Source: a virus
Lineage: Duplodnaviria; Heunggongvirae; Uroviricota; Caudoviricetes
Virus record (IMG/VR): IMGVR_UViG_3300026088_000011
DNA: 64,000 bases
Reading direction: 5' to 3' (one strand)
In this document: in pieces, positions 3,555 to 62,897 of the stretch
Numbering within the stretch: the stretch's first letter is position 1
Layout: each line of letters begins with the position of its first letter
Translations under genes and position numbers: made by a program
The notes under the pieces: generated by a model
Database searches by the model: none
Seen by the model: only the letters and a program-made list of their open reading frames with translations
What the model was told of the DNA's origin: nothing

Positions 3555-3555
3555 G

Positions 3556-5628: not shown

Positions 5629-5812
5629 ATTTCTTATAAGCTTTAAATTTCATATTGTTATTATACTTTTCAATCAAAAAGTTAATCTTGTCCACCCATA
5701 AATTATAATCTTTAGTTCTCTTATCAGGAATATTACTCTCCATTTTCTCAATAAGAGCATCAATTTCCCCTAAATTACTAAATTCTTTAGTATAAAACTC
5801 TTCCTCATCCAT
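5621..5812 (-). CDS. hypothetical protein
   Basis: 63-aa ORF. Confidence 0.3.
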   Translation of the reverse strand: MDEEEFYTKEFSNLGEIDALIEKMESNIPDKRTKDYNLWVDKINFLIEKYNNNMKFKAYKKYE

Positions 5813-51806: not shown

Positions 51807-52131
51807 CTAGTTTATTTGAATAATCGTTTAAGCGAATATACAGTTATAGTGATAGTACCACAACTCTAAAACACTCAAATCAATTAAATTTCACACTATT
51901 TTGACATCAAACAGTGTATCACTCAATTAATATGTATATATAATAGAGTGAATAATTAAGTTATCCACTCTAATGCATTATTTGCATCTTCTTTGGAGAA
52001 ATAGAAACCAAATATGTCTCCATCTTCATCAATTATGCACCATTCTTCTCCAAGAGGAGAAGTATAATTGTCTGGAATCAAGCTTATTCTCCACATAATA
52101 TTAATAGTTTAATTTACTCCTTATATATAGA

Positions 52132-52165
52132 TGTATAAAAAAGAGGCCATTACAGCCCCTTTTCC
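52132..52165 (-). terminator. Rho-independent terminator (minus strand)
   Basis: Minus strand reads AGGGGCtgtaatgGCCTCTTTTTTAT. Confidence 0.5.
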
Positions 52166-52291
52166 ATTTCAACCTAAACCCATTTACTACCCAAACAGAA
52201 TATTCTTTGGTATAAGACCCCTAAAAATAGGTATTGGTATATACAACAAATTACATTTCACCAAATATTATTCTGTTTAAGTATAAATAGG

Positions 52292-52324
52292 TGTATAAAA
52301 GGAGAGCATTGCTGCTCCCCTCTC
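52292..52324 (-). terminator. Rho-independent terminator right after the 52330-52722 gene (minus strand)
   Basis: Minus strand reads GAGCAgcaaTGCTC (GNRA-like tetraloop, extendable stem) followed by TCCTTTTAT. Confidence 0.5.
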
Positions 52325-52329
52325 GTTAA

Positions 52330-52722
52330 TTACCAAGCCAATTCTTCTGGATTAAGCACTTCAGCTTCAATTGCTGCAACATTAATCTTCTCAACAGCAA
52401 TCTCATGAACTCCACCAGTTGGAGGCATTGCTACAAACTGACGCAATTCACCTTTGTCATCTTCTGTTTCAATGACATTCAATCCTGCTAATTGGGAGAT
52501 TGTCAGCTTTTTAGCTCTGAACATCTCACTCACCTGCTTGCTACATGGAACAACAGCAGAATTACCAGCTTTGTTAGTAAGAACAACAACAACTCTCTTA
52601 GTGAGGTCATTGTAATTCTTCCTAAGGAAGCCAATCTTTCCACCTTTTCCAGCAAGATCTTTCACTGTGCCAAGGTCAGTAAGCTCTGCTGTACTGCCTT
52701 CATACTTCTTAAATTCTACCAT
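52330..52722 (-). CDS. hypothetical protein; compositionally atypical (about 42% GC versus about 29% background); standalone transcription unit
   Basis: 130-aa ORF flanked by about 400-bp intergenic regions, an upstream hairpin (52773-52797 GGGGAGTgatgtcaACTCCCC) and two downstream terminators. Confidence 0.55.
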   Translation of the reverse strand: MVEFKKYEGSTAELTDLGTVKDLAGKGGKIGFLRKNYNDLTKRVVVVLTNKAGNSAVVPCSKQVSEMFRAKKLTISQLAGLNVIETEDDKGELRQFVAMPPTGGVHEIAVEKINVAAIEAEVLNPEELAW

Positions 52723-53103
52723 AATACTTGTTTTTAATTGTGTTTTTGTTTTTTAATTCTCATTTGTTCTTAACCGGGGAGTGATGTCAACTCCCCAAAC
52801 TTGGGAGGGGTGGCTTGGTGGAGGTACACTACTCTCTCTTTAACATAAAAAATTCCTTAAATTTGGAAAATTTTTTATTTTTTCCTTCTCTAAAACACAT
52901 CTCTTCTACTCCAAACTAGATTGATATTCCACCTTTTACAGTCTTATATTTGGAAATGTCAAACCTTTTACATATATTTGTCCCATGTTAAATAATAATT
53001 TACGCCCCTTACAGCATTCACATTCGCTCCCTAGTTATCTAGTGGAGGAGGGGATATTTGTGTTTAATTATAGTTGATTCAGAACAACTTTTTAAAACTT
53101 CAG

Positions 53104-53139
53104 AAAACCCCTCCTTAAAACAGAGGGGTTTTTTATTTT
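53104..53139 (+). terminator. Rho-independent terminator immediately upstream of the tRNA array
   Basis: AAAACCCCTCcttaaaacaGAGGGGTTTTTTATTTT. Confidence 0.55.
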
Positions 53140-53212
53140 CTAGGTGTATATCAATTGGTAGATTACCTGGTTTGGGACCAGGAGGCTGTAGGATCATACC
53201 CTACCATCTAGA
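53140..53212 (+). tRNA. tRNA-Pro (anticodon TGG)
   Basis: Hand-folded. Acceptor CTAGGTG/CATCTAG (one G-U), anticodon stem CCTGG/CCAGG with loop TTTGGGA, T-arm GTAGG-atcatac-CCTAC. Confidence 0.65.
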
Positions 53213-53214
53213 CT

Positions 53215-53285
53215 TTTAATATGGTGTAATGGATGCACATCAGATTTTGAATCTGAGAGTTTGGGATCATGACCCAATATTAAAA
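53215..53285 (+). tRNA. tRNA-Gln (anticodon TTG)
   Basis: Acceptor TTTAATA/TATTAAA, anticodon stem TCAGA/TCTGA with loop TTTTGAA, T-arm TTGGG-atcatga-CCCAA. Confidence 0.55.
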
Positions 53286-53287
53286 CT

Positions 53288-53358
53288 GTGTCTGTAGCTT
53301 AATGTAAAGTCTCACCCTGTGAAGGTGATGGATATGGGGTCGATTCCCATTAGACACC
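53288..53358 (+). tRNA. tRNA-His (anticodon GTG)
   Basis: Acceptor GTGTCTG/TAGACAC, anticodon stem TCACC/GGTGA with loop CTGTGAA, T-arm ATGGG-gtcgatt-CCCAT. Confidence 0.6.
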
Positions 53359-53363
53359 TATTT

Positions 53364-53433
53364 CTTTCTGTAGCTTAAAGAAAAGCGATTGAATACGAAT
53401 CAATCAGATGAGGTTTCGCACCCTCCAGAAAGT
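53364..53433 (+). tRNA. tRNA-Arg (anticodon ACG); T-arm imperfect
   Basis: Acceptor CTTTCTG/CAGAAAG, D-stem GCTT/AAGC, anticodon stem ATTGA/TCAAT with loop ATACGAA. Confidence 0.5.
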
Positions 53434-53437
53434 CTAT

Positions 53438-53517
53438 GCTCCTGTGACATATGCAAAATGGTACAGCTACTAGTTTTAGAAACTAGGTTATTATAGGTTC
53501 GAATCCTATCAGGAGTA
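53438..53517 (+). tRNA. Atypical tRNA, anticodon TAG (Leu by anticodon) but 80 nt with an oversized D region and no long variable arm
   Basis: Acceptor GCTCCTG/CAGGAGT, anticodon stem CTAGT/ACTAG with loop TTTAGAA, canonical T-arm ATAGG-TTCGAAT-CCTAT. Confidence 0.4.
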
Positions 53518-53520
53518 CAT

Positions 53521-53609
53521 GTCCCTATGGTGAAAATGGCAGCACACGTTAGACTTAAAATCTAAAGCGAAGTAATAGTAGCGTGAAGGTTCGAAGCCTT
53601 CTAGGGATA
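53521..53609 (+). tRNA. tRNA-Leu (anticodon TAA), class II with long variable arm
   Basis: Acceptor GTCCCTA/TAGGGAT, anticodon stem TTAGA/TCTAA with loop CTTAAAA, T-arm GAAGG-TTCGAAG-CCTTC, 89 nt. Confidence 0.65.
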
Positions 53610-53613
53610 CATA

Positions 53614-53700
53614 AGGAGGGTATCTGGCTGGATGAAGAGCTTGTCTTGAAAACAAGTAGGTCGGTAATACTGGCTTGTGAGTTCGAGTCTCACATCCTCC
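53614..53700 (+). tRNA. tRNA-Ser (anticodon TGA), class II
   Basis: Acceptor GGAGGGT/ATCCTCC, anticodon stem CTTGT/ACAAG with loop CTTGAAA, T-arm GTGAG-TTCGAGT-CTCAC, 87 nt. Confidence 0.65.
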
Positions 53701-53703
53701 TCA

Positions 53704-53788
53704 TAGAGAGTTGACAGAGTGGCTTATTGTGTTTGTTTGCTAAACAAAAGGGTGTAACAGCTCCAGGAGTTCAAATCTCCTACTCTCT
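53704..53788 (+). tRNA. tRNA-Ser (anticodon GCT), class II
   Basis: Acceptor AGAGAGT/ACTCTCT, anticodon stem TTTGT/ACAAA with loop TTGCTAA, T-arm AGGAG-TTCAAAT-CTCCT, 85 nt. Confidence 0.65.
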
Positions 53789-53793
53789 TCAAA

Positions 53794-53879
53794 ACTGTAA
53801 GTATCCAAATTGGTGAAGGAGACAGACTGTAAATCTGTTGCCACTGGCTAAACTTGTAAGTTCGAATCTTACCTTGCAG
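53794..53879 (+). tRNA. tRNA-Tyr (anticodon GTA), class II
   Basis: Acceptor CTGTAAG/CTTGCAG, anticodon stem ACAGA/TCTGT with loop CTGTAAA, T-arm GTAAG-TTCGAAT-CTTAC, 86 nt. Confidence 0.65.
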
Positions 53880-53990
53880 ACAAAAATAAATTAATAAATA
53901 TTAGGAATTGTAGGTTTTATTTACTACGTTTGTGATATGAAAATAAAGAGTGTTAATAATTCTGAACAAATAGAGACTGAGGAACATATT

Positions 53991-54062
53991 GTTCCTGTCA
54001 TCTAATGGCTAGGATATTACACTTTCAATGTAAAAAAGAGGGGTCGAAACCCTCCAGGAATG
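53991..54062 (+). tRNA. tRNA-Glu (anticodon TTC)
   Basis: Acceptor GTTCCTG/CAGGAAT, anticodon stem TTACA/TGTAA with loop CTTTCAA, T-arm GAGGG-gtcgaaa-CCCTC. Confidence 0.6.
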
Positions 54063-54306
54063 CTAAAAATGAAGAAAGATATTAAGATTAATTTAATAAA
54101 ACTATTAGAAGAAAATGGTGGAAAATTTAGTTTTTTCCCAGAATGGACTTTGATAGGAACAGGTAAAGGTAAATTAACATCTATAAAATAAAGAATTATG
54201 AAAAGGAATTGGTTTAATATTATATTCACCATGTTTGCGACAAGAGATTGTGGCAAGGTGGGAGTATATTGTTGGAGCCAATAAAAGAATATAACACAAG
54301 TTATAA

Positions 54307-54337
54307 TTAAGGCTCCCCAAAAAGGAGCCTTTTTTAT
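54307..54337 (+). terminator. Rho-independent terminator inside the tRNA array
   Basis: AAGGCTCCccaaaaaGGAGCCTTTTTTATTT. Confidence 0.55.
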
Positions 54338-54341
54338 TTAT

Positions 54342-54415
54342 GGGGGATCATGTACCAAGGCTGGCGAGATTGCTTTGCAAGCAGACTGAGTAGGATTCGA
54401 TTTCCTAATTCTCCA
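54342..54415 (+). tRNA. Probable tRNA-Ala (anticodon TGC); D-arm unresolved
   Basis: Acceptor GGGGGAT/ATTCTCC with a G3-U70 wobble (the Ala identity element), anticodon loop TTTGCAA on a 4-bp stem, T-arm TAGGA-TTCGATT-TCCTA. Confidence 0.4.
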
Positions 54416-54421
54416 CATAAT

Positions 54422-54494
54422 AGTTCTGAGGTCAAATGGTTAAGATGTCCCACTGTCTATGGGTACGGAGAGGGTTCAAATCCCTTCAGAACTG
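54422..54494 (+). tRNA. tRNA-Asp (anticodon GTC)
   Basis: Acceptor AGTTCTG/CAGAACT, anticodon stem (T)CCCA/TGGG(T) with loop CTGTCTA, T-arm GAGGG-TTCAAAT-CCCTT. Confidence 0.6.
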
Positions 54495-54497
54495 CAA

Positions 54498-54568
54498 GGG
54501 TTGTTAGTACAATGGTAGTACGAGTGACTGTTAATCACTGAATGGTAGTTCGATTCTATCACTTCCCT
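54498..54568 (+). tRNA. tRNA-Asn (anticodon GTT); two U-U mismatches in the acceptor stem
   Basis: D-stem GTAC/GTAC, anticodon stem AGTGA/TCACT with loop CTGTTAA, T-arm GGTAG-TTCGATT-CTATC. Confidence 0.55.
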
Positions 54569-54574
54569 CAATAC

Positions 54575-54644
54575 ACACTTCAGGCTATGGTAGCCAAGGA
54601 GTCTCCAAAACTTCAGGACATCAGTTCGATTCTGTGGAGGTGTG
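54575..54644 (+). tRNA. Probable tRNA-Trp (anticodon CCA); short D-arm, weak T-stem
   Basis: Acceptor ACACTTC/GAGGTGT, anticodon stem GGAGT/ACTTC with loop CTCCAAA. Confidence 0.4.
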
Positions 54645-54650
54645 CAATAT

Positions 54651-54724
54651 TCCCTACGTAGCTCAACAGGTGGAGCAATAGTTTTGTAAACTGGAGGCTG
54701 TCAGTTCAAATCTGACCTAGGGAT
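54651..54724 (+). tRNA. Probable tRNA-Thr (anticodon TGT)
   Basis: Acceptor TCCCTAC/CTAGGGA (6 bp), D-stem GCTC/GAGC, anticodon loop TTTGTAA, T-arm GTCAG-TTCAAAT-CTGAC. Confidence 0.5.
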
Positions 54725-54760
54725 CATGGTGATAGTACGAAGATATAGGTTATTCTAATA

Positions 54761-54832
54761 AACTCCTGTAGTTTAAATGGAAAAACTATGCTCTTCTAAA
54801 GCATCATTCAGAGTTCGAATCTCTGTAGGAGT
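54761..54832 (+). tRNA. tRNA-Arg (anticodon TCT)
   Basis: Acceptor ACTCCTG/TAGGAGT, D-stem GTTT/AAAC, anticodon stem ATGCT/AGCAT with loop CTTCTAA, T-arm CAGAG-TTCGAAT-CTCTG. Confidence 0.65.
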
Positions 54833-54837
54833 TCATA

Positions 54838-54914
54838 TTGAGATGTATCCTCTCACGCTTATATCGTGTAGAAAAGGTAATTGGTCACATAAGGGTTCGA
54901 CCCCCTTCATCTCT
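54838..54914 (+). tRNA. tRNA-like element of uncertain fold (possible pseudo-tRNA; an internal stem-loop CACG-CTTATAT-CGTG would give anticodon TAT)
   Basis: Acceptor TGAGATG/CATCTCT (6 bp) and a good T-arm AAGGG-TTCGACC-CCCTT, but no canonical D or anticodon arm placement. Confidence 0.25.
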
Positions 54915-54964
54915 ACAAATTTTATTAATATGGAAACAGATAAAAAAGACTATGAGAAGATTTA

Positions 54965-55037
54965 TTCTCTCATAGCTCAATGGTAGAGCTGGAAGCTTTT
55001 AACTTTCAGATCATGGTTCGATTCCATGTGGGAGAAC
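54965..55037 (+). tRNA. tRNA-Lys (anticodon TTT)
   Basis: Acceptor TCTCTCA/TGGGAGA, D-stem GCTC/GAGC, anticodon stem GGAAG/CTTTC with loop CTTTTAA, T-arm CATGG-TTCGATT-CCATG. Confidence 0.7.
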
Positions 55038-55041
55038 ATAT

Positions 55042-55114
55042 AGTAACTTAGCTTAGATGGGAAAGCATCTGACTGATATTCAGAAGAGAACAGGATCGTT
55101 ACCTGTAGTTACTA
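55042..55114 (+). tRNA. tRNA-Ile (anticodon GAT)
   Basis: Acceptor AGTAACT/AGTTACT, D-stem GCTT/AAGC, anticodon stem TCTGA/TCAGA with loop CTGATAT, T-arm ACAGG-atcgtta-CCTGT. Confidence 0.65.
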
Positions 55115-55172
55115 CTTAAAATAAATATCATAAATCATTTGGAATTTATGATACTTCTTATTAAATTTGTAA

Positions 55173-55559
55173 ATGCCTATTAAAGACAAAGAAATAAGAA
55201 AAATAAAAAGCAGAGAATACCAAAAGAAACATTACGAAAGTAAGAAATGGTATTATAAGCAAAAAACAAAAGACAGAAAGAAGAACATATTAGATATGCT
55301 TTCTGAATTAAAACAAACTTTAAAATGTAAAAGTTGTGGAGAAGATCATCCTAGATGTTTAGATTTCCATCATAGAAATCCGAATGATAAGAAAATATCT
55401 ATCGCAAGAGTTGCAAATCAAGGATGGAGTTTAGAAAAAATAAAAGAAGAAATAAATAAATGTGATGTTTTATGCTCTAATTGTCATAGAAAATTACACT
55501 ATGAAGAAAATAATGTGGGTAGGGCTAGTGCCCCAGTGAGTCTCATAAGCTCACCTTGA
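55173..55559 (+). CDS. HNH endonuclease embedded in the tRNA array; 3' end overlaps the next tRNA
   Basis: CKSCGEDHPRCLDFHHRNPNDKKISIARV...CDVLCSNCHRKLHY, closely parallel to the HNH module of 35907-36800. Confidence 0.65.
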   Translation: MPIKDKEIRKIKSREYQKKHYESKKWYYKQKTKDRKKNILDMLSELKQTLKCKSCGEDHPRCLDFHHRNPNDKKISIARVANQGWSLEKIKEEINKCDVLCSNCHRKLHYEENNVGRASAPVSLISSP

Positions 55560-55581
55560 CAGGAGCGTAACCTGTACCCGC
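55512..55581 (+). tRNA. tRNA-Met (anticodon CAT; initiator/elongator/Ile2 not distinguishable); short D-arm
   Basis: Acceptor TGTGGGT/ACCCGCA, anticodon stem TGAGT/GCTCA with loop CTCATAA, T-arm ACAGG-agcgtaa-CCTGT (same T-stem as the tRNA-Ile). Confidence 0.5.
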
Positions 55582-55588
55582 AACAAAA

Positions 55589-55663
55589 GGAACATGAGCT
55601 AGTCTGGTGATTCAGCGTGCGCCTGAAGAGCGCAAGAATATGGTTCAATTCCATAATGTTCCA
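55589..55663 (+). tRNA. tRNA-Phe (anticodon GAA)
   Basis: Acceptor GGAACAT/ATGTTCC, anticodon stem TGCGC/GCGCA with loop CTGAAGA, T-arm TATGG-TTCAATT-CCATA. Confidence 0.65.
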
Positions 55664-55716
55664 CTGTATGGGAAGTTGACTAGTGTATAAAAAGGAAACT
55701 AGAGTCATAGTTAAAC

Positions 55717-55777
55717 TTAAAGGCTTGGCGGTAATTAGCTGTTATACATAGTTCGTCCTAACTAAAACCGCCTCCAT
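55717..55777 (+). ncRNA. tRNA-like fragment / structured element with an encoded CCA
   Basis: GGCGG ... stem TAGTT-cgtcct-AACTA ... AACCGCC-T-CCA; too short (about 55-60 nt) for a full tRNA. Confidence 0.2.
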
Positions 55778-55850
55778 ACTTCAGTAGCTCAGAGATAGCA
55801 GCAACTCCCTTACATGGAGAAGGTCAATGGTTTGATCCCATTCTGAAGTA
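55778..55850 (+). tRNA. tRNA-Val (anticodon TAC)
   Basis: Acceptor ACTTCAG/CTGAAGT, anticodon stem (A)CTCC/GGAG(A) with loop CTTACAT, T-arm AATGG-tttgatc-CCATT. Confidence 0.6.
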
Positions 55851-55854
55851 CAAT

Positions 55855-55926
55855 GCAGAACAGGTGTTGTTGAAGGCACTCCTGACTTCCAATCAGGGTG
55901 GTTGGGTTTGAACCCCAAGTTCTGCA
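55855..55926 (+). tRNA. tRNA-Gly (anticodon TCC)
   Basis: Acceptor GCAGAAC/GTTCTGC, D-stem GTGT/GCAC, anticodon stem CCTGA/TCAGG with loop CTTCCAA, T-arm TTGGG-tttgaac-CCCAA. Confidence 0.65.
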
Positions 55927-55953
55927 CTTTTGTCAAGTGTTTTTGAAAATAAT

Positions 55954-55990
55954 TTCTCCCTGATTACTAGCTAGTTAGGGAGTTTTTATT
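55954..55990 (+). terminator. Rho-independent terminator after tRNA-Gly
   Basis: TTCTCCCTgattactagctagttAGGGAGTTTTTATTTT. Confidence 0.5.
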
Positions 55991-56087
55991 TTAATCCCTA
56001 TTGCTTTATAATTAAATTCGTTATAACTTTGGGGATGGGTGGCAGGGTCTTGGAATATACCCTAGTTAGATATTCCAAATATAAAAC

Positions 56088-56158
56088 ATCAGGATGGTTG
56101 AGTGGTTAAACATAGATCTGCAAAATCTAGTACGTGAGTTCGAACCTCACTCCTGATT
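56088..56158 (+). tRNA. tRNA-Cys (anticodon GCA)
   Basis: Acceptor ATCAGGA/TCCTGAT, D-region GTTgagtggttaaAAC, anticodon stem TAGAT/ATCTA with loop CTGCAAA, T-arm GTGAG-TTCGAAC-CTCAC. Confidence 0.65.
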
Positions 56159-56335
56159 CTAAACCAATAACAATATGGGATATATAATAGGAATAATCTT
56201 CATTTTAGCTCTTTGTGCTCCTGATGATAGATATAAGAAAAAGGAAGAAAAGAAGAATTAAAGGATAATATAGCAATTATTTATAATTATTCTTGTTAGT
56301 TATGATAATTCCTTTTACATTTGTATTAATTACGT

Positions 56336-56695
56336 ATGGAAACCAAAGAACAGAAAGTCCTTTTACAAAGAATAAAGCTTACAGAGACACAATCTCTGAA
56401 CATAGCTCAGAAATATTATTCTCTTCTTTCAGCTATAGGAAACTCTCCTTTAACAGAAAGAGAGATTCAATTAGTAGCTTTTACAGCCATTAAGGGAAAC
56501 ATTTCTTATTCTTCTAATAGGGAAGAGTTTTGCATCTTGTATAAATCATCCTCCCCTACAATAAATAATATCATCTCCAAACTAAAGAAGATGAAAATTC
56601 TAGTAAAGGATGCAGGAAAGATAAAGGTTGATCCTAAGTACCTCTTGGATTTTAATAAAGATATTGTTCTACAAATCTCCCTATTACATGGATAA
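56336..56695 (+). CDS. hypothetical protein (first gene of the rightward late block)
   Basis: 119-aa ORF. Confidence 0.4.
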   Translation: METKEQKVLLQRIKLTETQSLNIAQKYYSLLSAIGNSPLTEREIQLVAFTAIKGNISYSSNREEFCILYKSSSPTINNIISKLKKMKILVKDAGKIKVDPKYLLDFNKDIVLQISLLHG

Positions 56696-57038
56696 ACCTC
56701 AATCAATGTCTGATAAGGACTATCTAATTAGAGTGATGAGTATTAAAACCAATACTCCTGTAGCTACAATAGATGCTGTTATCTCACATCAATTTGAGGC
56801 AGCCAATGAAGCTCTTAAAACCAATAATACAATAGAGCTTTCAGGATTTGGGAAGTTTGTCTTTAAATTAAAGAAAGCTCATAAGAAATTAGAAAGGAAT
56901 ATAGGTAAGAAGGAGTATTGGGAGAAAGCTCTGCAAGATAGTGCTCTAACAGACCAGAAGAGGCAATCTTACACAAATAAACTAAATAATACAATAAAAG
57001 AAATAGAAGTGTTGAAAACCAAATTGAAAGTAGAATGA
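56688..57038 (+). CDS. HU/IHF-like DNA-binding protein (start at the internal Met MDKPQ)
   Basis: ATIDAVISHQFEAANEALKTNNTIELSGFGKFVFKLKK parallels the HU core (...AA.E.....I...L..G..V.L.GFG.F.v). Confidence 0.4.
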   Translation: MDKPQSMSDKDYLIRVMSIKTNTPVATIDAVISHQFEAANEALKTNNTIELSGFGKFVFKLKKAHKKLERNIGKKEYWEKALQDSALTDQKRQSYTNKLNNTIKEIEVLKTKLKVE

Positions 57039-57358
57039 ATTTCTTAGAAATATTTGAAGGTTGGCGAAATCATCTTCTCCCTCCTGAAAGATTAAAGGAT
57101 TTAATTAAACAAACCAGTGAAGAAAGACTAGCTATATGTGTAAAATGTATAGCTTATGATGAAACAGGAGAAGGATGTGCAATGCCTCTATCTCAACCTT
57201 GCTGTAATAAACATGTAAAAGTGGAAGGAACTTTAGGATGTGGATGTCCTTTAAAAAGTAAAACTAAATGTCTTTCATGTAGCTGTCCTGCTGATAAATG
57301 GAAAGCCATTTCTACACCAGAACAAGAAGAAATAATAAACAGTAAATTAAACAATTGA
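57035..57358 (+). CDS. hypothetical Cys-rich protein
   Basis: 107 aa with 13 Cys (CVKCIAYDETGEGCAMPLSQPCCNKHVKVEGTLGCGCPLKSKTKCLSCSCP). Confidence 0.4.
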   Translation: MNFLEIFEGWRNHLLPPERLKDLIKQTSEERLAICVKCIAYDETGEGCAMPLSQPCCNKHVKVEGTLGCGCPLKSKTKCLSCSCPADKWKAISTPEQEEIINSKLNN

Positions 57359-57362
57359 ATAT

Positions 57363-57641
57363 ATGGAGCCTAGAGATTATAAGATGATCAATATCGAAGC
57401 TATGATGGAAGTATTGAATATGCTTTGGAATAAAGGAGTGGACTACGTTGATATATCTGGAAAACAAGGAGAAGATCAAGATGAAATATGCTTCTCCTTT
57501 TGTAGGGAATATATGGATGAGGAATATAAAGATACATTTGAAGACGGATTTATACAAGAAGAAGAGAATGAAATCATCTCAAAACCCACTCAACAAATAA
57601 AGGTGAAATTAACAGATAAAGACATAGACGAATTAATTTAA
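57363..57641 (+). CDS. hypothetical acidic protein
   Basis: 92-aa ORF. Confidence 0.35.
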   Translation: MEPRDYKMINIEAMMEVLNMLWNKGVDYVDISGKQGEDQDEICFSFCREYMDEEYKDTFEDGFIQEEENEIISKPTQQIKVKLTDKDIDELI

Positions 57642-57953: not shown

Positions 57954-58282
57954 TGGCTAAGAAAGCAAATAACTACATTACTACAGAACTTGATTGGGCT
58001 GAACAACAACTTAAGTCTTGGAAAGCTTATGTAGATGCTAATCCATTACATGAGTTAAAAGATAGAATTGAATGGAAACCTACGAGTAAAGGAGGACTAC
58101 TCCCTATGGTTATTGCCTCAATTGAAGCTCAAGGTAAGTTCATTCAAGACACTATGAAGAACTATCTAGCTTTATTAGAAGTAGTAAATAATCTTAGAGA
58201 AAGAGAAGAAGCAAAGGTGGAAATTAGAGGAAAAGGAGAGCTTTCTGTTATGGCTTCAAATTTCCTTAAAGATAGAAAATGA
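57953..58282 (+). CDS. hypothetical protein; small terminase subunit suspected from position only
   Basis: 109-aa ORF immediately upstream of the putative large terminase, overlapping stop/start. Confidence 0.25.
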   Translation: MAKKANNYITTELDWAEQQLKSWKAYVDANPLHELKDRIEWKPTSKGGLLPMVIASIEAQGKFIQDTMKNYLALLEVVNNLREREEAKVEIRGKGELSVMASNFLKDRK

Positions 58283-60306
58283 CAAACGAAGTAAAATCTA
58301 TAGATTATAAAGATTGGTTTATTAACCAAAAACGTATTCCAGATAAAGGATCTATAGAACATGAGGAGTTCTTTAATTTTCATAAGGAACTATGTTTAAA
58401 TGGATGTATGATAGGAGGGGTTTATTTTAACCCCTTTTTGTATTGGCATTTAAATATATGGCACACAGAAGTAGACATAATTGACTCCAAAGGAAGAATA
58501 TCTCAAAAGTATTCCAACCCCTATCTCAGGGATAATGAATGGATAGTTACAGAAGCTATTGAAAAAGCTCACGAAGAAAAGAAAGGATTGGCAATAGGAG
58601 GGATAAGACGTTTAGCTAAATCAGTAATAGAAGCTTCTTATATAGGATGGGGGGCAACATTTGATGAAAATTCTCAGAATGTTATTTCAGGATTAAATTC
58701 TCCTGATATAAAACTAGTGACAGATAAGATAGACAAGGGTTTAAACTTTATACCTGAAGCTTGGAGGTGGCAGAGAATTGAGGATAATTGGAAGAACCAA
58801 GTAACTCTAGGAGTTAAAACTAAAAGTGGAGAAAGAATCCCCTTCTCAGCTATCCTTATAAGGAACTTAGATGAGGGTAATAATGAAGAAGCTATTGCTG
58901 GTACAAAGCCTAGGAAACTAATTATAGATGAAGGAGGAAAAGGTAGTTTCCTAAGAGGTTTACAAGCTGCTATTCCAGGATTTACTACACCTTATGGATG
59001 GGGATGTTCTCCTATAGTAACGTTCACAGGTGGAGATATGACTAAATTTGCAGATGCTAAACTCCTAATGTTTGATGTAGAAGCATTTAACTTCCTATCT
59101 TATAATAATACAGAAGATACTAAAAGAGTACATGGACTATTCTTAGGTCACAAATATAGAATGGAGGCTAAACGACCTTCTAATCTAGCTGACTATTTAC
59201 AAATTGATTCTCCAGAACTTAAGAAAATAGAGATGTTAGTTAGTGATGAGGAGATAGCTAACAAAATAACAGATGATAATCTAGCTAGATCTAAGAAAGC
59301 AGGAGACAGAATAGCATATCTTAAGGAAAAAATGTACTATCCTAAAACAGTGGATGATATATTCCTTAATGAGAATACCAATATATTTGATATAGAAGCT
59401 GCTAGAAGACAAAAAGCAAGGCTCCTATCAAGAGGATTCACAGGAACCCCTGTAATTTTACATATGGGAGAAAATGGTATATATCATGAATTCACAGACA
59501 AAAGACCTATAACTAATTTTCCACTAAAATCTACAGATGACAAAGATGCTCCAGTAGTAATTATAGAATTTCCAATGACTAACCCTCCCTATGGATTATA
59601 TACAGGAGGAGGTGACCCATATAGACAAGGTAAGGCTATATACAGTACATCTCTTGGAGCTATATACATATATAAAAGAATGCATAATATTCTTACTGAT
59701 AAATATCAAGAAATGCTTGTAGCATATTATGTAGCTAGACCTGATAAAAAAGAAAAATGGGAGGAGCAAGCTAGACTACTTATTAAATATTACAATGCAA
59801 GAGCCTTAATAGAAAATGATGAGATCTCTTTCATAGATCATATGAAAGCCAAAGGAGATGCTAATTATTTAGAACCTCAACCTCAATGGTTAAGAAGAGT
59901 TATACCAAATACTTCTCAAAATAGAGATTATGGTTTATCAAGATCTTCAGATAAAATAATTGATTTTCTTCATGGAAATCTTAAAAAATATACAGAAGAA
60001 ATAATACATTCTGAAAAAGATGAACATGGTAATACAATAAAAGAAATCACAGGAATGTCTAGAATTCTAGATCCTATGCTTTTAGAAGAAATGATTCAAT
60101 ACAATGAAGATGGTAACTTTGATAGAATTGTAGCAGCAGAACTAGCCATCACTCAAGCAATTGAAATGGACCCTATATACGGAAAAGCAACACAAGAGAA
60201 TGAAAGAGCTAAATCCTTATATCAAGGAAATAAAGCAAAACCAACACTATTTGGGGAAACTCCATCCCTATTCAATAAAAAAAGAACACGTAAATTATTT
60301 GCATAA
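58279..60306 (+). CDS. Putative terminase large subunit
   Basis: 675 aa; Walker-A-like LAIGGIRRLAKSV, Walker-B-like KLIIDEGGK about 110 aa later, acidic residues in the C-terminal half consistent with an RNase-H-like nuclease; directly precedes the putative portal gene. Confidence 0.5.
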   Translation: MTNEVKSIDYKDWFINQKRIPDKGSIEHEEFFNFHKELCLNGCMIGGVYFNPFLYWHLNIWHTEVDIIDSKGRISQKYSNPYLRDNEWIVTEAIEKAHEEKKGLAIGGIRRLAKSVIEASYIGWGATFDENSQNVISGLNSPDIKLVTDKIDKGLNFIPEAWRWQRIEDNWKNQVTLGVKTKSGERIPFSAILIRNLDEGNNEEAIAGTKPRKLIIDEGGKGSFLRGLQAAIPGFTTPYGWGCSPIVTFTGGDMTKFADAKLLMFDVEAFNFLSYNNTEDTKRVHGLFLGHKYRMEAKRPSNLADYLQIDSPELKKIEMLVSDEEIANKITDDNLARSKKAGDRIAYLKEKMYYPKTVDDIFLNENTNIFDIEAARRQKARLLSRGFTGTPVILHMGENGIYHEFTDKRPITNFPLKSTDDKDAPVVIIEFPMTNPPYGLYTGGGDPYRQGKAIYSTSLGAIYIYKRMHNILTDKYQEMLVAYYVARPDKKEKWEEQARLLIKYYNARALIENDEISFIDHMKAKGDANYLEPQPQWLRRVIPNTSQNRDYGLSRSSDKIIDFLHGNLKKYTEEIIHSEKDEHGNTIKEITGMSRILDPMLLEEMIQYNEDGNFDRIVAAELAITQAIEMDPIYGKATQENERAKSLYQGNKAKPTLFGETPSLFNKKRTRKLFA

Positions 60307-62897
60307 TGGCAATTATTAGATATACAAAGGACGCAACAATTAGATATGCCTATCTAAACATCTTTCCTGATCAGTTTAAAACTGAAGAAGAAAAGAAAGA
60401 CGATAGTTGGATAAAGAATACAATGGACTACTTTGCTAATAAGGCATATGTAGAGTACAAGAAAAATAGAGAAACCTTTGTTAAAAACTATGATTTGGTT
60501 AAAGGTATTCTTAGACATGAGGATTTCTATGAAAATCAAGAAGTAAGTTCCTTTACAGAAACCCTAACAAGAGATTTAGACCTACCTGCTTATGTAAAGC
60601 ATTATTCTATTCTAACCACTCCTATAAATGAACTTGTAGGAGAACTTTCTAAAAGACCAGACGGATATAAAGTGAAAGCTTTTGACGATGATAGTAAGGC
60701 TGAAGAGTTAGAATTTAAAACTCAAATACTTCAACAGTTTATCATCTCTCAAGCAAAAGAAAGAATTCAAGCTAATTTAGCTCTTCAAGGAGAAGAGGTT
60801 GATGATGAAGAACTTCAACAAATGACACTAGATGATGTTAAGGATGAGCTGGATAGTTATACTTCAATGGCTGAAAAATGGGGAAATCATGTACTTACCT
60901 GCGCTAAAGCTGATTTCAATGTAAAGGAATTAAGCGAGGATGCTTTTAGAGATATGCAAATTTCTGCTAGAGAATACTATCATATTTACGAAGATAACTC
61001 TAAAACAGGATTTAATATAGAAGTGTTTAATCCCAAGAATGTATGGTATTTAACCACTCCTGATAGAAAATATGTATCAGATCCTTCTGGTAGAACCAGA
61101 GGAGCATATGCTGCTGGAGGAGTACATGTCATGGAAATATCTGAAATTATAGAAACCTTCCCAGATATTACTAAAGATGAAATAGACCACCTTAGATCTT
61201 CTCTTCAAGACTATGGTCTTATTAATGTTAGAGAATCTAATTTAGGAGCAGATGTTACTCCAGGTATAGATAGTATAAAGTATGACACCTTTGATCCGGC
61301 TATTCTTCAAGAAAGAATGATGATAGAGGGAGAAATGAAGGAAAATAATGATAGTTTAAAGGATTTTCTAGGCCTTACTTCTAATGTTTCTTCATTTGGT
61401 TATAAGTATGTAGTGGTTAGAGCTTATTGGTTGTCTAAAAGGAAGATAGGAAAGGTGGTGTATGAGGACGAATTAGGTAATGAACAATCTATCCTTGTAG
61501 ATGAAAATTATAAGAAGGGTACCATTCCTACAGAGATTTCGGTAGAATGGGGATGGACTAATCAATGGTATCAAGGAGTTAAGATTGGGCCAGATATTTA
61601 TCATATTAAACCTTACAAACTATTAGACTATTGTCCTATTATAGGACTTATTTACGAAGTAAAAAACACTGAAGCTAAGTCTACAGTGGATATGATGAAA
61701 CCTTTCCAGGTAATATACAATGTCTGTATGAATCAGATGTTTGAGCTATTAAAGAAGGAAATAGGTAATGTTGCCTCTGTAAACATTAGAAGAGTTCCTA
61801 GAATTAAAGATGGAGATGCTCAAGATGATATTGATTTGTGGGAACAAGAAGCTAGAACTAGAGGTATAATGTTCGATGACGATAGTCCTGAGAATACTAA
61901 AGCTCCAGTAACTAATACATCTATTGCTAAAAATGTAGACCTCACCAGAACTAATGAAATACAGGCTAGATACAATCTAGCTGTACAAATGAAGAACGAA
62001 TGTTGGGAACTCATAGGAATGTCTAAACAAAGACTTGGTTCTATATCTGCCTCAGAGTCAGCAACAGGAACCCAAGCTGCTATAACACAGTCCTATTCTC
62101 AGACAGAACCTCAATTTGTAGCTCATGAGTATATATTAGGTCAATTATATCAGGCCATTATAGATGGATCTTTATATGTGGAGTCTCAGAAACCACAATC
62201 CACCCTATCTTATATTACTAATAAAGGAGAATCTGCATTTGTACAAGTAAATGGAACAGATTTAAAATCAAGAGACTTAAAGGTATTTCCTACTAACAGA
62301 CCGGAAGACAAGGAAATGTTTAAAGAACTTAGAGGTCTTGCTCACCCCGCTATGCAAAATGGAGCTACATTATATGATATTGTAGAATTATATTCTACAG
62401 ATTCTGTGCGTCAAATGAAGAAAACTTTTAAAACTCTTAAAGAAAGACAAGAAGAGCTTCAGAACCAACAAATGCAACAAAAACAGCAAGAATTGCAACA
62501 AGAACAAGGAATTTCTCAAGCTCAATTACAGCAAGCTAAACAAATGCATGATGAACAAGTTGCTCATGATGATTATCAGAAACAACTGGATAGAGAATCT
62601 AAGGAGAAAATTGCCATCATCCAAGCCACAGGTTTCGGAAAGGTGGAGTCTGAAGATTTGAATCAAAATGAAATACCAGATGTTTTAGAGGCTTCCAGGT
62701 TAGTACATGATCAGGAAAATGCTGTAAGAGACTACAATTTAAAGCTTACGGATATGGCTTCTAAGAACAAGCAGTCTTCTGAAAAGACAGCTTTAGAAAA
62801 GGAGAAGATTAAGGTGGAAAGAGAAAATCAAGCCAATGATTTAGCTATTGCAAAAATAAATGCCAAAAATAGGAAATCTCAAAATAAGAAAAAATAA
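60306..62897 (+). CDS. Putative portal protein
   Basis: 863 aa, immediately downstream of the putative terminase (ATG overlaps its stop), Q/E-rich coiled-coil C-terminus; size and position only, no motif confirmed. Confidence 0.4.
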   Translation: MAIIRYTKDATIRYAYLNIFPDQFKTEEEKKDDSWIKNTMDYFANKAYVEYKKNRETFVKNYDLVKGILRHEDFYENQEVSSFTETLTRDLDLPAYVKHYSILTTPINELVGELSKRPDGYKVKAFDDDSKAEELEFKTQILQQFIISQAKERIQANLALQGEEVDDEELQQMTLDDVKDELDSYTSMAEKWGNHVLTCAKADFNVKELSEDAFRDMQISAREYYHIYEDNSKTGFNIEVFNPKNVWYLTTPDRKYVSDPSGRTRGAYAAGGVHVMEISEIIETFPDITKDEIDHLRSSLQDYGLINVRESNLGADVTPGIDSIKYDTFDPAILQERMMIEGEMKENNDSLKDFLGLTSNVSSFGYKYVVVRAYWLSKRKIGKVVYEDELGNEQSILVDENYKKGTIPTEISVEWGWTNQWYQGVKIGPDIYHIKPYKLLDYCPIIGLIYEVKNTEAKSTVDMMKPFQVIYNVCMNQMFELLKKEIGNVASVNIRRVPRIKDGDAQDDIDLWEQEARTRGIMFDDDSPENTKAPVTNTSIAKNVDLTRTNEIQARYNLAVQMKNECWELIGMSKQRLGSISASESATGTQAAITQSYSQTEPQFVAHEYILGQLYQAIIDGSLYVESQKPQSTLSYITNKGESAFVQVNGTDLKSRDLKVFPTNRPEDKEMFKELRGLAHPAMQNGATLYDIVELYSTDSVRQMKKTFKTLKERQEELQNQQMQQKQQELQQEQGISQAQLQQAKQMHDEQVAHDDYQKQLDRESKEKIAIIQATGFGKVESEDLNQNEIPDVLEASRLVHDQENAVRDYNLKLTDMASKNKQSSEKTALEKEKIKVERENQANDLAIAKINAKNRKSQNKKK

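Follow-up and report, generated by a model that had tools for sequence, protein, structure and literature searches.

A dense array of tRNA genes in a 64,000-nucleotide stretch of viral DNA (hereafter, the window) raises the question of where its novelty lies, in the tRNA genes themselves or in the spacers between them. The DNA is that of a phage, as the initial annotation had it: the − strand carries replication genes, and the + strand the genes for the large terminase (58279–60306) and the portal protein (60306–62897). The array lies where the replication and the packaging genes diverge, in the intergenic region separating them, and it is the tRNA module of a lytic phage of ~110–125 kb, distantly related to the crAss-like phages, to Cellulophaga phage phi4:1 and to Leptolyngbya phage Lbo-JY46.

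ARAGORN at default settings identified 19 tRNA genes between 53140 and 56159, all on the + strand, and Rfam RF00005 added tRNA-Arg(ACG) at 53364–53433 at gathering score (44.6 bits), so that standard thresholds give 20 genes for 18 amino acids. Relaxed scans revealed four further atypical genes: Leu(UAG), Ala(UGC), Met(CAU) and a remnant with a UAU loop. These are supported by the scans together with canonical orthologues in three related contigs (L003, L083 and L004), where tRNAs of the same anticodon fill the equivalent slots (CAU in the fourth), and by the C that, followed by A or T, lies directly 3′ of 23 of the 23 tRNA genes. The window and the three contigs share the gene order of the array. 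We conclude that this is a real phage set with one tRNA per codon box, comprising 23 genes and one aberrant element; the 22–24 genes first estimated and all 23 of the anticodons first listed were thus recovered by ARAGORN, Rfam, relaxed scans and orthologues combined.

In principle, the set is sufficient to decode all sense codons used by the phage. Cover for Ala and Met, and hence for all 20 amino acids, relies on non-canonical predicted genes, and the four non-canonical tRNAs may be non-functional, which would leave the set incomplete. The early observation of a wobble bias towards U also held, U34 being present in each four-codon box except CGN, where the anticodon is ACG. Because any set with one tRNA per codon box must use U34, this is weak evidence for codon-usage tuning. 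As a tRNA set, the array is ordinary. The suggestion that 20-amino-acid coverage is unusual for a phage did not survive comparison: the T5 record contains 24–25 tRNAs covering all 20 amino acids and interspersed with HNH genes, and arrays also adjoin the terminase genes of the cultured phages closest to this one, phi4:1 (23 tRNAs annotated, 21 isotyped and 2 flagged tRNA-Pseudo) and Lbo-JY46 (17 annotated, ~20 at relaxed threshold). T5, with which we group the T4 tRNA cluster with SegB among the closest known systems, resembles the window in its ~24-tRNA block, its HNH genes (one overlapping a tRNA), its short ORFs and the lack of a fully encoded CCA. It differs in carrying redundant isoacceptors and stable RNAs, whereas in the window each codon box has a single tRNA; nor does T5 have a leader ORF followed by a terminator that abuts a tRNA.

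What is new is the content of the spacers, namely the leaders and terminators. The features computed for the first sub-array are as follows.

52949–52980, +: promoter-like box P1, TTTG-N20-TATATTTG, Bacteroidota-type −33/−7 (pattern search); ends 4 nt upstream of the leader ORF 1 ATG; kept in L003 and L083
52985–53077, +: leader ORF 1, MLNNNLRPLQHSHSLPSYLVEEGIFVFNYS and stop
53103–53139, +: intrinsic terminator 1 (putative attenuator), hairpin GAAAACCCCUC/GAGGGGUUUUU and a T-run reaching the first base of tRNA-Pro
53140–53212, +: tRNA-Pro(UGG) (ARAGORN; Rfam 53.7 bits)
53215–53285, +: tRNA-Gln(UUG) (ARAGORN, Rfam)
53288–53357, +: tRNA-His(GUG) (ARAGORN, Rfam)
53364–53433, +: tRNA-Arg(ACG) (Rfam, as above; ARAGORN -ps95; orthologues in L003, L083 and L004)
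53438–53517, +: tRNA-Leu(UAG), atypical (Rfam 26.9 bits, cut-off 29), with a short variable arm, a D arm longer by 4 nt and A73; compensatory anticodon-stem change between the window and L083 (alignment); type II orthologue in L004
53521–53609, +: tRNA-Leu(UAA) (ARAGORN, Rfam)
53613–53699, +: tRNA-Ser(UGA) (ARAGORN, Rfam)
53705–53789, +: tRNA-Ser(GCU) (ARAGORN, Rfam)
53795–53880, +: tRNA-Tyr(GUA) (ARAGORN, Rfam)

The Glu unit, the second sub-array and the Cys unit follow.

53901–53932, +: promoter-like box P2, −7 box TACGTTTG at 53925–53932 (alignment); TAnnTTTG form kept in four of four arrays (alignment; L004 by pattern match)
53937–54005, +: Glu-rich short ORF, MKIKSVNNSEQIETEEHIVPVI and stop (read from sequence), overlapping tRNA-Glu by 15 nt; regulatory role uncertain
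53991–54062, +: tRNA-Glu(UUC) (ARAGORN, Rfam)
54060–54191, +: short ORF in the window only, an insertion missing from L003, L083 and L004 (alignment)
54198–54284, +: leader ORF 2, MKRNWFNIIFTMFATRDCGKVGVYCWSQ and stop
54309–54340, +: intrinsic terminator 2 (putative attenuator), AAGGCUCC/GGAGCCUU and T-run
54342–54415, +: tRNA-Ala(UGC), atypical (ARAGORN -ps95 only; alignment with canonical orthologues), D arm degenerate and D stem weak, G3:U70 and A73 present
54422–54494, +: tRNA-Asp(GUC) (ARAGORN, Rfam)
54498–54568, +: tRNA-Asn(GUU) (ARAGORN, Rfam)
54575–54644, +: tRNA-Trp(CCA) (ARAGORN; no match in the Rfam search)
54651–54724, +: tRNA-Thr(UGU) (ARAGORN, Rfam)
54762–54833, +: tRNA-Arg(UCU) (ARAGORN, Rfam)
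~54839–54915, +: aberrant tRNA-like element (ARAGORN -ps95; alignment; fold), acceptor and T arms intact, D arm replaced, anticodon-like hairpin loop CU-UAU-AU; slot occupied by a CAU tRNA in L003 and L083; possibly an AUA decoder or a pseudogene
54966–55036, +: tRNA-Lys(UUU) (ARAGORN; Rfam 65 bits)
55042–55114, +: tRNA-Ile(GAU) (ARAGORN, Rfam)
55173–55559, +: HNH homing endonuclease gene (PHROGs, E = 4e-28), an insertion separating tRNA-Ile from tRNA-Met; a promoter-like box of its own lies at 55138–55169; final 46 nt overlap the tRNA-Met gene; missing from L003, L083 and L004
55514–55583, +: tRNA-Met(CAU), atypical (ARAGORN -ps90 only; orthologue in L083), D loop of 4 nt, T loop AGCGUAA; minimum-energy fold a clean cloverleaf (z = −2.9)
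55589–55663, +: tRNA-Phe(GAA) (ARAGORN; Rfam 45.5 bits)
55778–55850, +: tRNA-Val(UAC) (ARAGORN; Rfam 50.9 bits)
55855–55926, +: tRNA-Gly(UCC) (ARAGORN; partial Rfam match, 20.4 bits)
55956–55990, +: intrinsic terminator 3, closing the second sub-array
56001–56031, +: promoter-like box P4, −7 box TAACTTTG at 56024–56031 (alignment), upstream of tRNA-Cys and the packaging operon; TAnnTTTG kept in four arrays, in L003 and L083 also by pattern match
56088–56158, +: tRNA-Cys(GCA) (ARAGORN, Rfam)

Two sub-arrays open with a promoter-like TTTG-N19-TAnnTTTG box, followed by an ORF of 28–30 codons. Next comes an intrinsic terminator, its T-run placed directly against the first tRNA. Promoters and start sites are predicted from consensus matches, the promoter-like pattern occurring 7 times in the window against 3.0 expected in the pattern search. 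The initial annotation had placed internal terminators at 54307 and 55954. Hairpins are indeed found at 54309–54331 and 55956–55982, but the first is not a simple internal terminator, since it abuts a tRNA and has a leader upstream. A terminator of the attenuator type is missing from the Glu and Cys units.

Comparison of the leader ORFs with the tRNAs that follow them reveals a correspondence. ORF 1 reads LRPLQHSHSLPSYL, and the tRNAs downstream are Pro, Gln, His, Arg(ACG), Leu, Leu, Ser, Ser and Tyr. Every codon from 6 to 19 is cognate to these nine tRNAs, a run of 14 that was reached by none of 200,000 simulated peptides (P_run < 5e-6); overall, 17 of 29 codons fall in the set (8.1 expected) and 9/9 codon boxes are represented. 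ORF 2 reads KRNWFNIIFTMFATRDCGKVGV and precedes Ala, Asp, Asn, Trp, Thr, Arg(UCU), Ile, Lys, Ile, Met, Phe, Val and Gly. It names each tRNA of the second sub-array, plus Cys, with 22/27 codons in the set, a run of 16 and 13/13 boxes (P = 0.002). Its DNA is nearly invariant across the four arrays, and the reading frame of ORF 1 is retained in L003, L083 and L004, the genomes of this clade being mutually non-independent.

About six divergent phage lineages show the match, and their leaders differ as their sub-arrays do. The leaders of the three phi4:1 units contain 7/7, 9/10 and 6/6 boxes, and that of the Lbo-JY46 Pro unit 7/7 boxes with a run of 11; the Lbo-JY46 Leu-unit leader is a poor match taken alone. 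Across leaders, several in-set runs were attained by none of 200,000 simulated peptides. Where a genome has more than one leader, the best match of each is to its own sub-array, with the exception of Lbo_c, which matches all three about equally. The correspondence extends to codon families and to gene loss: Arg codons are CGY upstream of Arg(ACG) and AGR upstream of Arg(UCU), and in L004, where tRNA-Val is missing, both Val codons of the ORF 2 counterpart have been replaced, leaving none. A Lbo-JY46 leader contains R (CGT) and W, and the Arg(ACG) and Trp tRNAs missed at the ARAGORN default were found in relaxed scans; Tyr and Ser residues that have no counterpart behind one Lbo-JY46 leader are accounted for in L171, a relative of Lbo-JY46 that retains Ser, Ser and Tyr tRNAs. 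A terminator abutting the first tRNA is also present in phi4:1, Lbo-JY46, Maribacter phage Panino, L171, L184 and L194. The same pipeline found no such leader units in T5, Fusobacterium phage Fnu1, Streptomyces phage Alone3 or a 636-kb phage.

With phi4:1 and Lbo-JY46, the window shares an array beside the terminase and portal genes, the promoter-like box, the order leader ORF, terminator, first tRNA, and the neighbourhoods Pro..Gln-His and Leu-UAG beside Leu-UAA. Terminase identity is nevertheless 32–40%, and the sub-arrays are cut differently, with the leaders following suit. In the public records, these leaders are unannotated or hypothetical proteins (phi4:1 gp075), and full-text literature searches found no earlier description.

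Alternative pairings were computed for the leader RNAs. The 5′ arm of terminator 1 can pair with GGAGGGG at ORF 1 codons 21–24, and that of terminator 2 is complementary to UGGAGCC at ORF 2 codons 26–28 (codon-shuffle P = 0.004). Partial folds show the majority of terminator 5′ arms paired with the last third of the ORF to which they belong; codon-shuffle P values range from 0.004 to 0.4 across leaders and combine to ~1e-4 by Fisher's method. Several off-diagonal duplexes equal the matched ones in strength, since a C-rich arm, as many of the terminators have, would anneal to Gly-rich codons anywhere.

These features suggest that the leaders probably direct ribosome-mediated attenuation of the his/trp type in phage tRNA operons. 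The genes fall into putative transcription units, two of which would be governed in this way. In each of these two, the promoter would drive a leaderless or nearly leaderless ORF of 28–30 codons, the central codons of which form a ‘roll call’ of the codon boxes decoded by the downstream tRNAs; the terminator lies ~25 nt past the leader stop codon, its T-run contacting the first tRNA. When the cognate tRNAs are all plentiful, the ribosome would pass the roll-call codons, segment 2 would be either covered by the ribosome or base-paired to segment 1, and the terminator would form, switching the tRNA genes off. Should any one cognate tRNA become scarce, through host-defence cleavage, host shut-off or high demand from A/U-rich codons, the ribosome would stall on segment 1, segment 2 would pair with the 5′ arm of the terminator, and RNA polymerase would read through into the sub-array. 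The evidence is comparative and statistical throughout, and the transcription start sites, leader translation, the direction of the switch and its physiological trigger we infer from sequence. To our knowledge, coupled transcription–translation has not been established in Bacteroidota.

A different step might be controlled. The leaders could sense translation but act through RNase P or RNase Z processing, RNA stability or Rho, or with the opposite sign, efficient translation promoting read-through. Such a scheme would accommodate the Glu unit, which lacks a terminator and whose Glu-rich ORF enters the tRNA and can pair, through GAGGAACA, with its 5′ acceptor strand, as well as the hairpins placed directly against RNase P cleavage sites and the weakness of several antiterminator duplexes (phi4:1 unit 2, −6.2 kcal/mol, shuffle P = 0.41; Panino, P = 0.25). 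We nevertheless consider it unlikely, given that every unit has a canonical terminator with GC-rich stem and T-run, that the folds show 1:2, 2:3 and 3:4 alternatives, and that the stop codon lies 21–31 nt from the terminator arm in 13/13 leaders, a spacing that, like that of classical attenuators, prevents a ribosome at the stop codon from covering the hairpin.

Large phage tRNA arrays are commonly explained as codon-usage compensation. A plain constitutive cluster offsetting A/T-rich phage codons against the host tRNA pool, with the ORFs and hairpins incidental, would fit the GC3 of ~20% in the window's genes, the 4% of codons that are ATA and the suitability of U34 anticodons for NNA codons; the lack of an array at this site in ~150 relatives (70–73% terminase identity) is expected of an accessory module. 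The set, however, gives each box a single tRNA and does not favour particular codons, the leader–tRNA match is far above chance and recurs in independent lineages with differing sub-arrays, and the abutting terminators, which leave no room for a promoter, are kept across phages whose terminases are only 32–40% identical. This explanation is very unlikely. That the ORFs encode functional micro-proteins (for example membrane or anti-defence peptides), with terminators ending their own transcripts and leaky read-through or unrecognised promoters supplying the tRNAs, is highly improbable: the ORF 2 amino acids are conserved with mostly synonymous differences among close relatives, its N-terminal half is hydrophobic and the peptide has two Cys, but a long internal hairpin also accounts for the DNA conservation, a functional peptide needs neither the amino acids of the downstream tRNAs nor an Arg codon family that switches with the isoacceptor, and in ORF 1 substitutions stay inside the amino-acid set without preserving particular residues, and its C-terminal tail is altered by a frameshift in L083.

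Attenuation of the proposed kind has parallels in known systems. The trp, his, pheA and thr attenuators likewise combine a short leader ORF rich in regulatory codons with an intrinsic terminator that precedes the genes under control and with mutually exclusive 1:2, 2:3 and 3:4 pairings, and multivalent leaders (ilvGMEDA, ilvBN, thr) sense two or three amino acids. Those systems regulate biosynthetic enzymes and classical leaders repeat one amino acid, whereas the phage leaders would regulate tRNAs and contain 7 to 13–14 codon boxes, mostly 1–3 times each. T-box riboswitches, too, make read-through of an intrinsic terminator depend on the state of a particular tRNA, but they bind uncharged tRNA directly, have no ORF and control synthetase or amino-acid genes; no T-box or other non-tRNA Rfam family was matched in the region. 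The phage system would further differ from classical attenuators in being phage-borne, in probably operating in Bacteroidota and in that its products decode the sensor directly, which would make the loop self-limiting. Leader and terminator together have the appearance of a new feedback control of tRNA supply, and the translational autonomy proposed at the outset for this phage is plausible.

Analysis of the whole window with ARAGORN at default settings revealed 19 tRNA genes, all on the plus strand at 53140–56159, and none in the rest of the 64 kb. At its gathering score (cut-off 29 bits), the Rfam tRNA model RF00005 returned 16 genes in the whole-window run and 18 when the region was searched alone. 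Arg(ACG) at 53364–53433 is found by Rfam and missed by ARAGORN at default, and together the two give 20 genes, serving 18 amino acids. With the ARAGORN thresholds relaxed, four calls were added: Ala(UGC), a CAU tRNA, a UAG tRNA and an 89-nt oddity. We accept the array as 23 tRNA genes and one aberrant element, with the four atypical members as candidate tRNAs. This agrees with the 22–24 or so genes of the initial annotation (19 by ARAGORN default, 20 with Rfam, the rest at relaxed thresholds), all 23 of whose anticodons were reproduced by ARAGORN and Rfam; the terminators that it had placed at 54307 and 55954 were located at 54309–54331 and 55956–55982. Tandem, on one strand and in a phage genome, the genes constitute a phage tRNA gene cluster. 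The set is real and near-complete, but such sets are not as unusual for a phage as was supposed, T5 covering all 20 amino acids.

Each of the 23 tRNA genes is followed by C and then A or T, and CCA is never encoded. The same flank is present at every tRNA of the window's relatives; in T5 and Fusobacterium phage Fnu1, the position is always occupied by A. The C plus A/T flank suggests a lineage-specific 3′-processing signal and a dependence on the CCA-adding enzyme. The members that required relaxed thresholds are as follows.

Atypical members of the window array
53438–53517, plus strand: Leu(UAG), relaxed ARAGORN; 26.9 bits in Rfam
about 54342–54415, plus strand: Ala(UGC), relaxed ARAGORN only
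54839–54915, plus strand: UAU-loop tRNA-like element, relaxed ARAGORN (89-nt call overlapping the end of Arg(UCU))
55514–55583, plus strand: Met(CAU), relaxed ARAGORN only

These four have conserved slots and anticodons, one compensatory pair and C74, but their D arms are aberrant. The Leu(UAG) slot is filled in the window and in L003, L083 and L004, three related contigs, and a compensatory pair in the anticodon stem separates the window from L083. Its variable arm is short and class I-like in the window, L083, L003, Cellulophaga phage phi4:1 and Leptolyngbya phage Lbo-JY46, and long and class II in L004; A73 is present in all the orthologues (L003 488–563; phi4:1, L001, 9704–9779; Lbo-JY46, L002, 5530–5603; L004 5440–5523). 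Ala(UGC) of the window is far diverged from its canonical counterparts in the three contigs, with G3:U70 and A73 retained. A CAU tRNA follows Ile in all four arrays; the window copy folds as a clean cloverleaf (z = −2.9) without the usual D-loop and T-loop motifs, and the CAU tRNAs mix initiator, elongator and Ile2 features. The UAU-loop element has good acceptor and T arms, a replaced D arm, a 1:72 mismatch and the hairpin loop CU-UAU-AU. No orthologue of the same structure was found in L003, L083 or L004: the slot after Arg(UCU) holds a CAU tRNA with a C1×A72 mismatch in the first two and is empty in L004. The element may be a decayed gene or, given that ATA makes up 4% of the phage codons and is present in the second of the leader ORFs described below, a decoder of AUA.

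Codon usage was compiled from 16,629 codons in 84 ORFs. At third positions, A accounts for 41%, T for 39%, G for 13% and C for 7%; ATA, with 674 occurrences, is the most frequent Ile codon, and CGG does not occur. The anticodon set supplies exactly one tRNA per codon box, with U34 in four-codon and NNR boxes, G34 in NNY boxes, ACG for CGN, CAU for AUG and, for AUA, the candidate decoder in the aberrant slot. This is the look of a minimal complete set. The U34 preference described in the initial annotation is present, but the bias says little about tuning, since a minimal complete set looks like that anyway. Stop-codon recoding or the use of suppressor tRNAs can be dismissed: there is no suppressor anticodon, and terminase and portal are intact under table 11.

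The main result concerns the short leader ORFs that precede the Pro and Ala sub-arrays.

Leader elements of the window
52949–52980: promoter-like box TTTG-N20-TATATTTG, 4 nt before ORF 1
52985–53077: leader ORF 1, 30 codons
54198–54284: leader ORF 2, 28 codons

ORF 1 reads M-LNNN-LRPLQHSHSLPSYL-VEEGIFVFNYS and ORF 2 M-KRNWFNIIFTMFATRDCGKVGV-YCWSQ. The reading frames are conserved in relatives, and the DNA of ORF 2 is almost invariant across the four arrays. The T-run of the terminator hairpin at 53103–53133 reaches the first base of tRNA-Pro, and that of the hairpin at 54309–54331 ends some 2 nt before tRNA-Ala. There is no room for a promoter between the terminators and the first tRNAs, so that the sub-array transcripts must pass through the terminators.

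ORF 1 is followed by Pro, Gln, His, Arg(ACG), Leu(UAG), Leu(UAA), Ser(UGA), Ser(GCU) and Tyr. Fourteen successive codons belong to this set, and all nine boxes are sampled.

Codons of ORF 1 for each tRNA of its sub-array
Pro: CCC, CCT
Gln: CAG
His: CAT, twice
Arg(ACG): CGC
Leu(UAG): CTC, CTA
Leu(UAA): TTA
Ser(UGA): TCA, TCG
Ser(GCU): AGT
Tyr: TAT

ORF 2 is followed by Ala, Asp, Asn, Trp, Thr, Arg(UCU), the UAU/CAU slot, Lys, Ile, Met, Phe, Val and Gly, with Cys past the next terminator; it has a run of 16 in-set codons and samples 13 of 13 boxes, Arg as AGG and AGA. Among 200,000 peptides simulated from the window's own codon usage, none reached the ORF 1 run of 14, and full box coverage had P = 0.001 for ORF 1 and P = 0.002 for ORF 2. 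In the ORF 1 core, no substitution within the window clade leads outside the amino-acid set; the C-terminal tail, by contrast, carries a frameshift in L083. It is close to certain that the match of leader to tRNAs, a roll call of the genes downstream, is non-random.

The arrangement of promoter box, ORF, terminator and first tRNA recurs in other phages, where the contents of the sub-arrays differ and the leaders differ accordingly.

Leader units in other phages
phi4:1 unit 1: core QRLHLQELEQP; then Pro Glu Gln His Leu Leu Arg(ACG)
phi4:1 unit 2: core TKTGITVIDKTKGARA; then Ala Lys Ile Gly Met Asp Thr Val Arg(UCU) Met
phi4:1 unit 3: core NYCTYNNSNWSFSY; then Tyr Ser Ser Asn Trp Phe and one tRNA without assigned isotype
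Lbo-JY46: core TRQHTQFWFPT; then Pro Thr Phe Gln His Arg(ACG) Trp
Lbo-JY46: leader rich in Cys, Ile, Asn, Asp and Gly; then Lys Cys Cys Arg Asn Met Gly Glu Asp Met Ile Ala
L171: core YYSLSLLSSL; then Leu Leu Ser Ser Tyr
Maribacter phage Panino: core NTFSWFNYSNCSDCNC; then Tyr Ser Ser Asn Trp Phe Cys
L184: three units
L194: one unit

A terminator-anchored pipeline, which replaced a generic scan that split sub-arrays at gaps of at least 90 nt and missed most units, recovers all of these automatically; it found no units in T5, Fnu1, Streptomyces phage Alone3 or a 636-kb phage. Shared sequence ancestry might be put forward to explain the match, but four observations argue for a causal link between leader and tRNAs instead. 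In genomes with several leaders, every leader but one fits its own sub-array best, the exception being Lbo_c of Lbo-JY46, which fits all three about equally. The Arg codons of the leaders track the downstream Arg isoacceptor. Where tRNA-Val has been lost, in L004, both Val codons of the leader are replaced. Finally, leader residues anticipated genes found later: Arg(ACG) and Trp of Lbo-JY46 emerged at the relaxed ARAGORN threshold, Ser, Ser and Tyr genes that account for residues at first unexplained in a leader of Lbo-JY46 turned up in its relative L171, and Cys was found in Panino at the position of the phi4:1 tRNA without assigned isotype. By analogy with Panino, the phi4:1 'pseudo' tRNA at 12854–12928 is probably Cys.

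Two annotated coding sequences of phi4:1 bear on these units: gp075 (9990–10109) is the second leader ORF with an upstream extension reaching into the promoter, and gp076 (12118–12219) overlaps a tRNA-Ser(UGA) at 12113–12196 called by relaxed ARAGORN. In Alone3 (L167), an ORF beginning MTPTTTT at 6778–6888 lies just before three tRNA-Thr genes (P about 0.002), and in T5 (L169) short K-rich and T-rich ORFs lie ahead of tRNA-Lys and tRNA-Thr. These are weak hints of single-amino-acid leaders, none with an abutting terminator.

For analysis of alternative pairings, the leaders were folded up to the terminator loop, that is, before the 3′ arm is made. In these partial folds, the partner of the terminator 5′ arm is, in most units, a stretch in the 3′ third of the same unit's ORF. 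In ORF 1, GGAGGGG (codons 21–24) pairs with CCCCUC; in the full-length fold it switches to CGCCCCUU (codons 7–9), and the terminator forms. ORF 2 folds on itself through codons 4–11 and 20–28, and its UGGAGCC (codons 26–28) is complementary to the terminator arm GGCUCC. The arms differ in L083 and L004, with complementarity to the ORF 2 segment kept. The antiterminator duplexes of the window amount to −11.4 kcal/mol (codons 21–24) and −11.9 kcal/mol (codons 26–28), support varying in other lineages. Against codon-shuffled ORFs, P was 0.004 for ORF 2, 0.006 for the Lbo-JY46 Pro unit, 0.024 for phi4:1 unit 1 and 0.07–0.41 for the remaining units; Fisher's method gives about 1e-4 for the nine values together. 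All 13 leaders have 21–31 nt between stop codon and terminator arm, the same geometry as in attenuators of the trp and his type. The pairing evidence is weaker than that from leader composition.

The elements by which a ribosome-mediated attenuator is recognised in sequence are thus all found: a short ORF, cognate codons, an intrinsic terminator and a competing antiterminator overlapping the ORF. We consider it likely that the leaders act by roll-call attenuation. Transcription would start at or just before the leader ATG, and the leader would be translated. A stall at any roll-call codon would free the 3′ segment of the ORF to form the antiterminator, allowing RNA polymerase into the sub-array, and smooth translation would let the terminator form. 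As the tRNA products decode the leader that senses them, the circuit would be a negative feedback loop. Candidate triggers are the cleavage or decay of host tRNAs in infection, or the load of A/U-rich late genes.

Other kinds of regulatory RNA find little in the sequence. A T-box riboswitch gave no Rfam match over 52000–57500, even at E ≤ 10, and other known RNA families gave only sub-threshold noise in spacers and leaders (rimP, Phe leader, STnc100). A resemblance of the WFNI of ORF 2 to TnaC was set aside, since only four residues match and their spacing is different.

TAnnTTTG boxes, a motif that we take to be the Bacteroidota sigma-A consensus, are conserved also between the Tyr and Glu genes and between the Gly and Cys genes. 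An ORF in the second of these spacers was rejected as a leader, L083 having CTG in place of ATG; the conservation of this spacer is read as a promoter or initial transcript. Lbo-JY46, reported as a cyanophage, carries TTTG-N19-TAnnTTTG boxes like those of Bacteroidota phages (1789–1820, 3526–3557, 5352–5383, 5786–5817 and 6081–6112). A phage-encoded factor may read the motif, or else the host assignment needs a second look.

Several further features of the spacers were observed. After box P2, a Glu-rich ORF at 53937–54005 (E at 4 of 22 positions), present in the four arrays, runs into tRNA-Glu (53991–54062). Its GAG GAA C, which is GAG GAG C in L003 and L083, can pair with the 5′ acceptor strand of tRNA-Glu and co-varies with it; the ORF may be a processing-level sensor, a reading with weak statistical support. 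A stretch of about 35 nt before tRNA-Lys (54931–54965, ATGGAAACAGATAAAAAAGACTATGAGAAGATTTATTCT) is conserved in the four arrays and, on the minus strand, forms a terminator-like hairpin together with the tRNA-Lys start. The Phe-to-Val spacer (55664–55777) is 113 nt long in the window vs 3 nt in L003 and 53 nt in L083; it holds an acceptor-like GGCGGT...ACCGCC pair and yielded no tRNA call, by relaxed ARAGORN included, and no significant fold.

The window is phage DNA. On the minus strand, Pfam and PHROGs identify a ribonucleotide reductase, a RecA/UvsX-like recombinase, DNA polymerase, helicase, primase and a PD-(D/E)XK nuclease; past the array on the plus strand lie the large terminase (58279–60306) and portal (60306–62897). 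The terminase is 40% identical to that of Lbo-JY46 and 32% to those of phi4:1 and phi17:2. Set against the Crassvirales, identity is 24–30% for the terminase and 26–28% for the DNA polymerase, which is nearest to crAss-like phages, while the best terminase matches are Lbo-JY46 and phi4:1. Both of these carry tRNAs beside terminase and portal: phi4:1 has 23 annotated, two of them flagged tRNA-Pseudo, and Lbo-JY46 has 17 (about 20 at the relaxed threshold) with a homing endonuclease within the array. Six homing-endonuclease ORFs, HNH and related, were found in the window (3840–4418, 7313–7879, 12669–13439, 35907–36800, 55173–55559 and 62897–63574). The one at 55173–55559 sits within the array, shares 46 nt with tRNA-Met and comes with a TTTG-N20-TAAATTTG box of its own.

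Searching IMG/VR and a metagenome collection with the terminase gave about 160 loci at 70–85% identity, of which only three, L003, L083 and L004, have an array upstream of the terminase, all with the gene order of the window. In about 150 relatives (L005–L162; terminase identity 70–73%; for example L021 6956–7960 and L041 6907–7914), the site is without a tRNA array; a few have a lone ARAGORN call elsewhere. The flanking genes, homologues of 52330–52722 and 56336–56695, lie about 650 nt apart without the array vs 3.6 kb in the window, which marks the array as a clean presence/absence module at a fixed site. Many IMG/VR contigs (L003–L082) end 2–6 kb upstream of the terminase, near the array site; these ends may be genome termini or assembly breaks. 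Among further searches for carriers, an alignment-based scan gave two more array-bearing relatives. A DNA search of a phage collection with the window matched single tRNAs and the HNH gene only, a degenerate ORF 2 pattern returned only two contigs already known, and single-protein terminase scans with phi4:1 and Lbo-JY46 queries returned only phi4:1 itself and one relative. Four of six MAG bins with this terminase family are Bacteroidota or near (Sediminibacterium twice, Cytophagales, Kapaibacterium), a weak hint of a Bacteroidota host.

The array itself is of a known kind, represented by T5-like complete sets and by those of phi4:1 and Lbo-JY46; in T5, a 20-amino-acid set with HNH genes, as in the window, was already known. 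Earlier descriptions of such leaders were not found in the full-text literature, of which coverage was incomplete, and priority elsewhere is possible. The device would work like the multivalent ilv and thr attenuators. It differs from them in regulating tRNA genes, in being phage-borne and in the breadth of its leaders, which sample 7 to 13–14 codon boxes, mostly one to three times each.

The leading ideas on phage tRNA sets, near-complete ones included, are that they compensate for codon usage, stand in for host tRNAs that have been degraded or evade anticodon nucleases. The leaders allow the isotypes of odd phage tRNAs to be assigned from sequence alone, since leader residues unmatched at default preceded the finding of Arg, Trp and Cys at a relaxed threshold or in a relative. 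As compact natural parts, they lend themselves to synthetic circuits for sensing tRNA or translation capacity, and phi4:1 on Cellulophaga baltica provides a cultured system for testing. Overall, we think it reasonably probable that an aquatic phage group, probably on Bacteroidota, uses multivalent roll-call attenuators that test for each downstream tRNA and switch the operon on only if one is missing, giving a self-regulating supply. A leader that lists the tRNAs downstream would be a direct molecular read-out of tRNA sufficiency and would carry classical attenuation beyond amino-acid biosynthesis, into the decoding machinery itself; if this is true, the roll-call supply could double as a sensor of tRNA-cleaving host defences.
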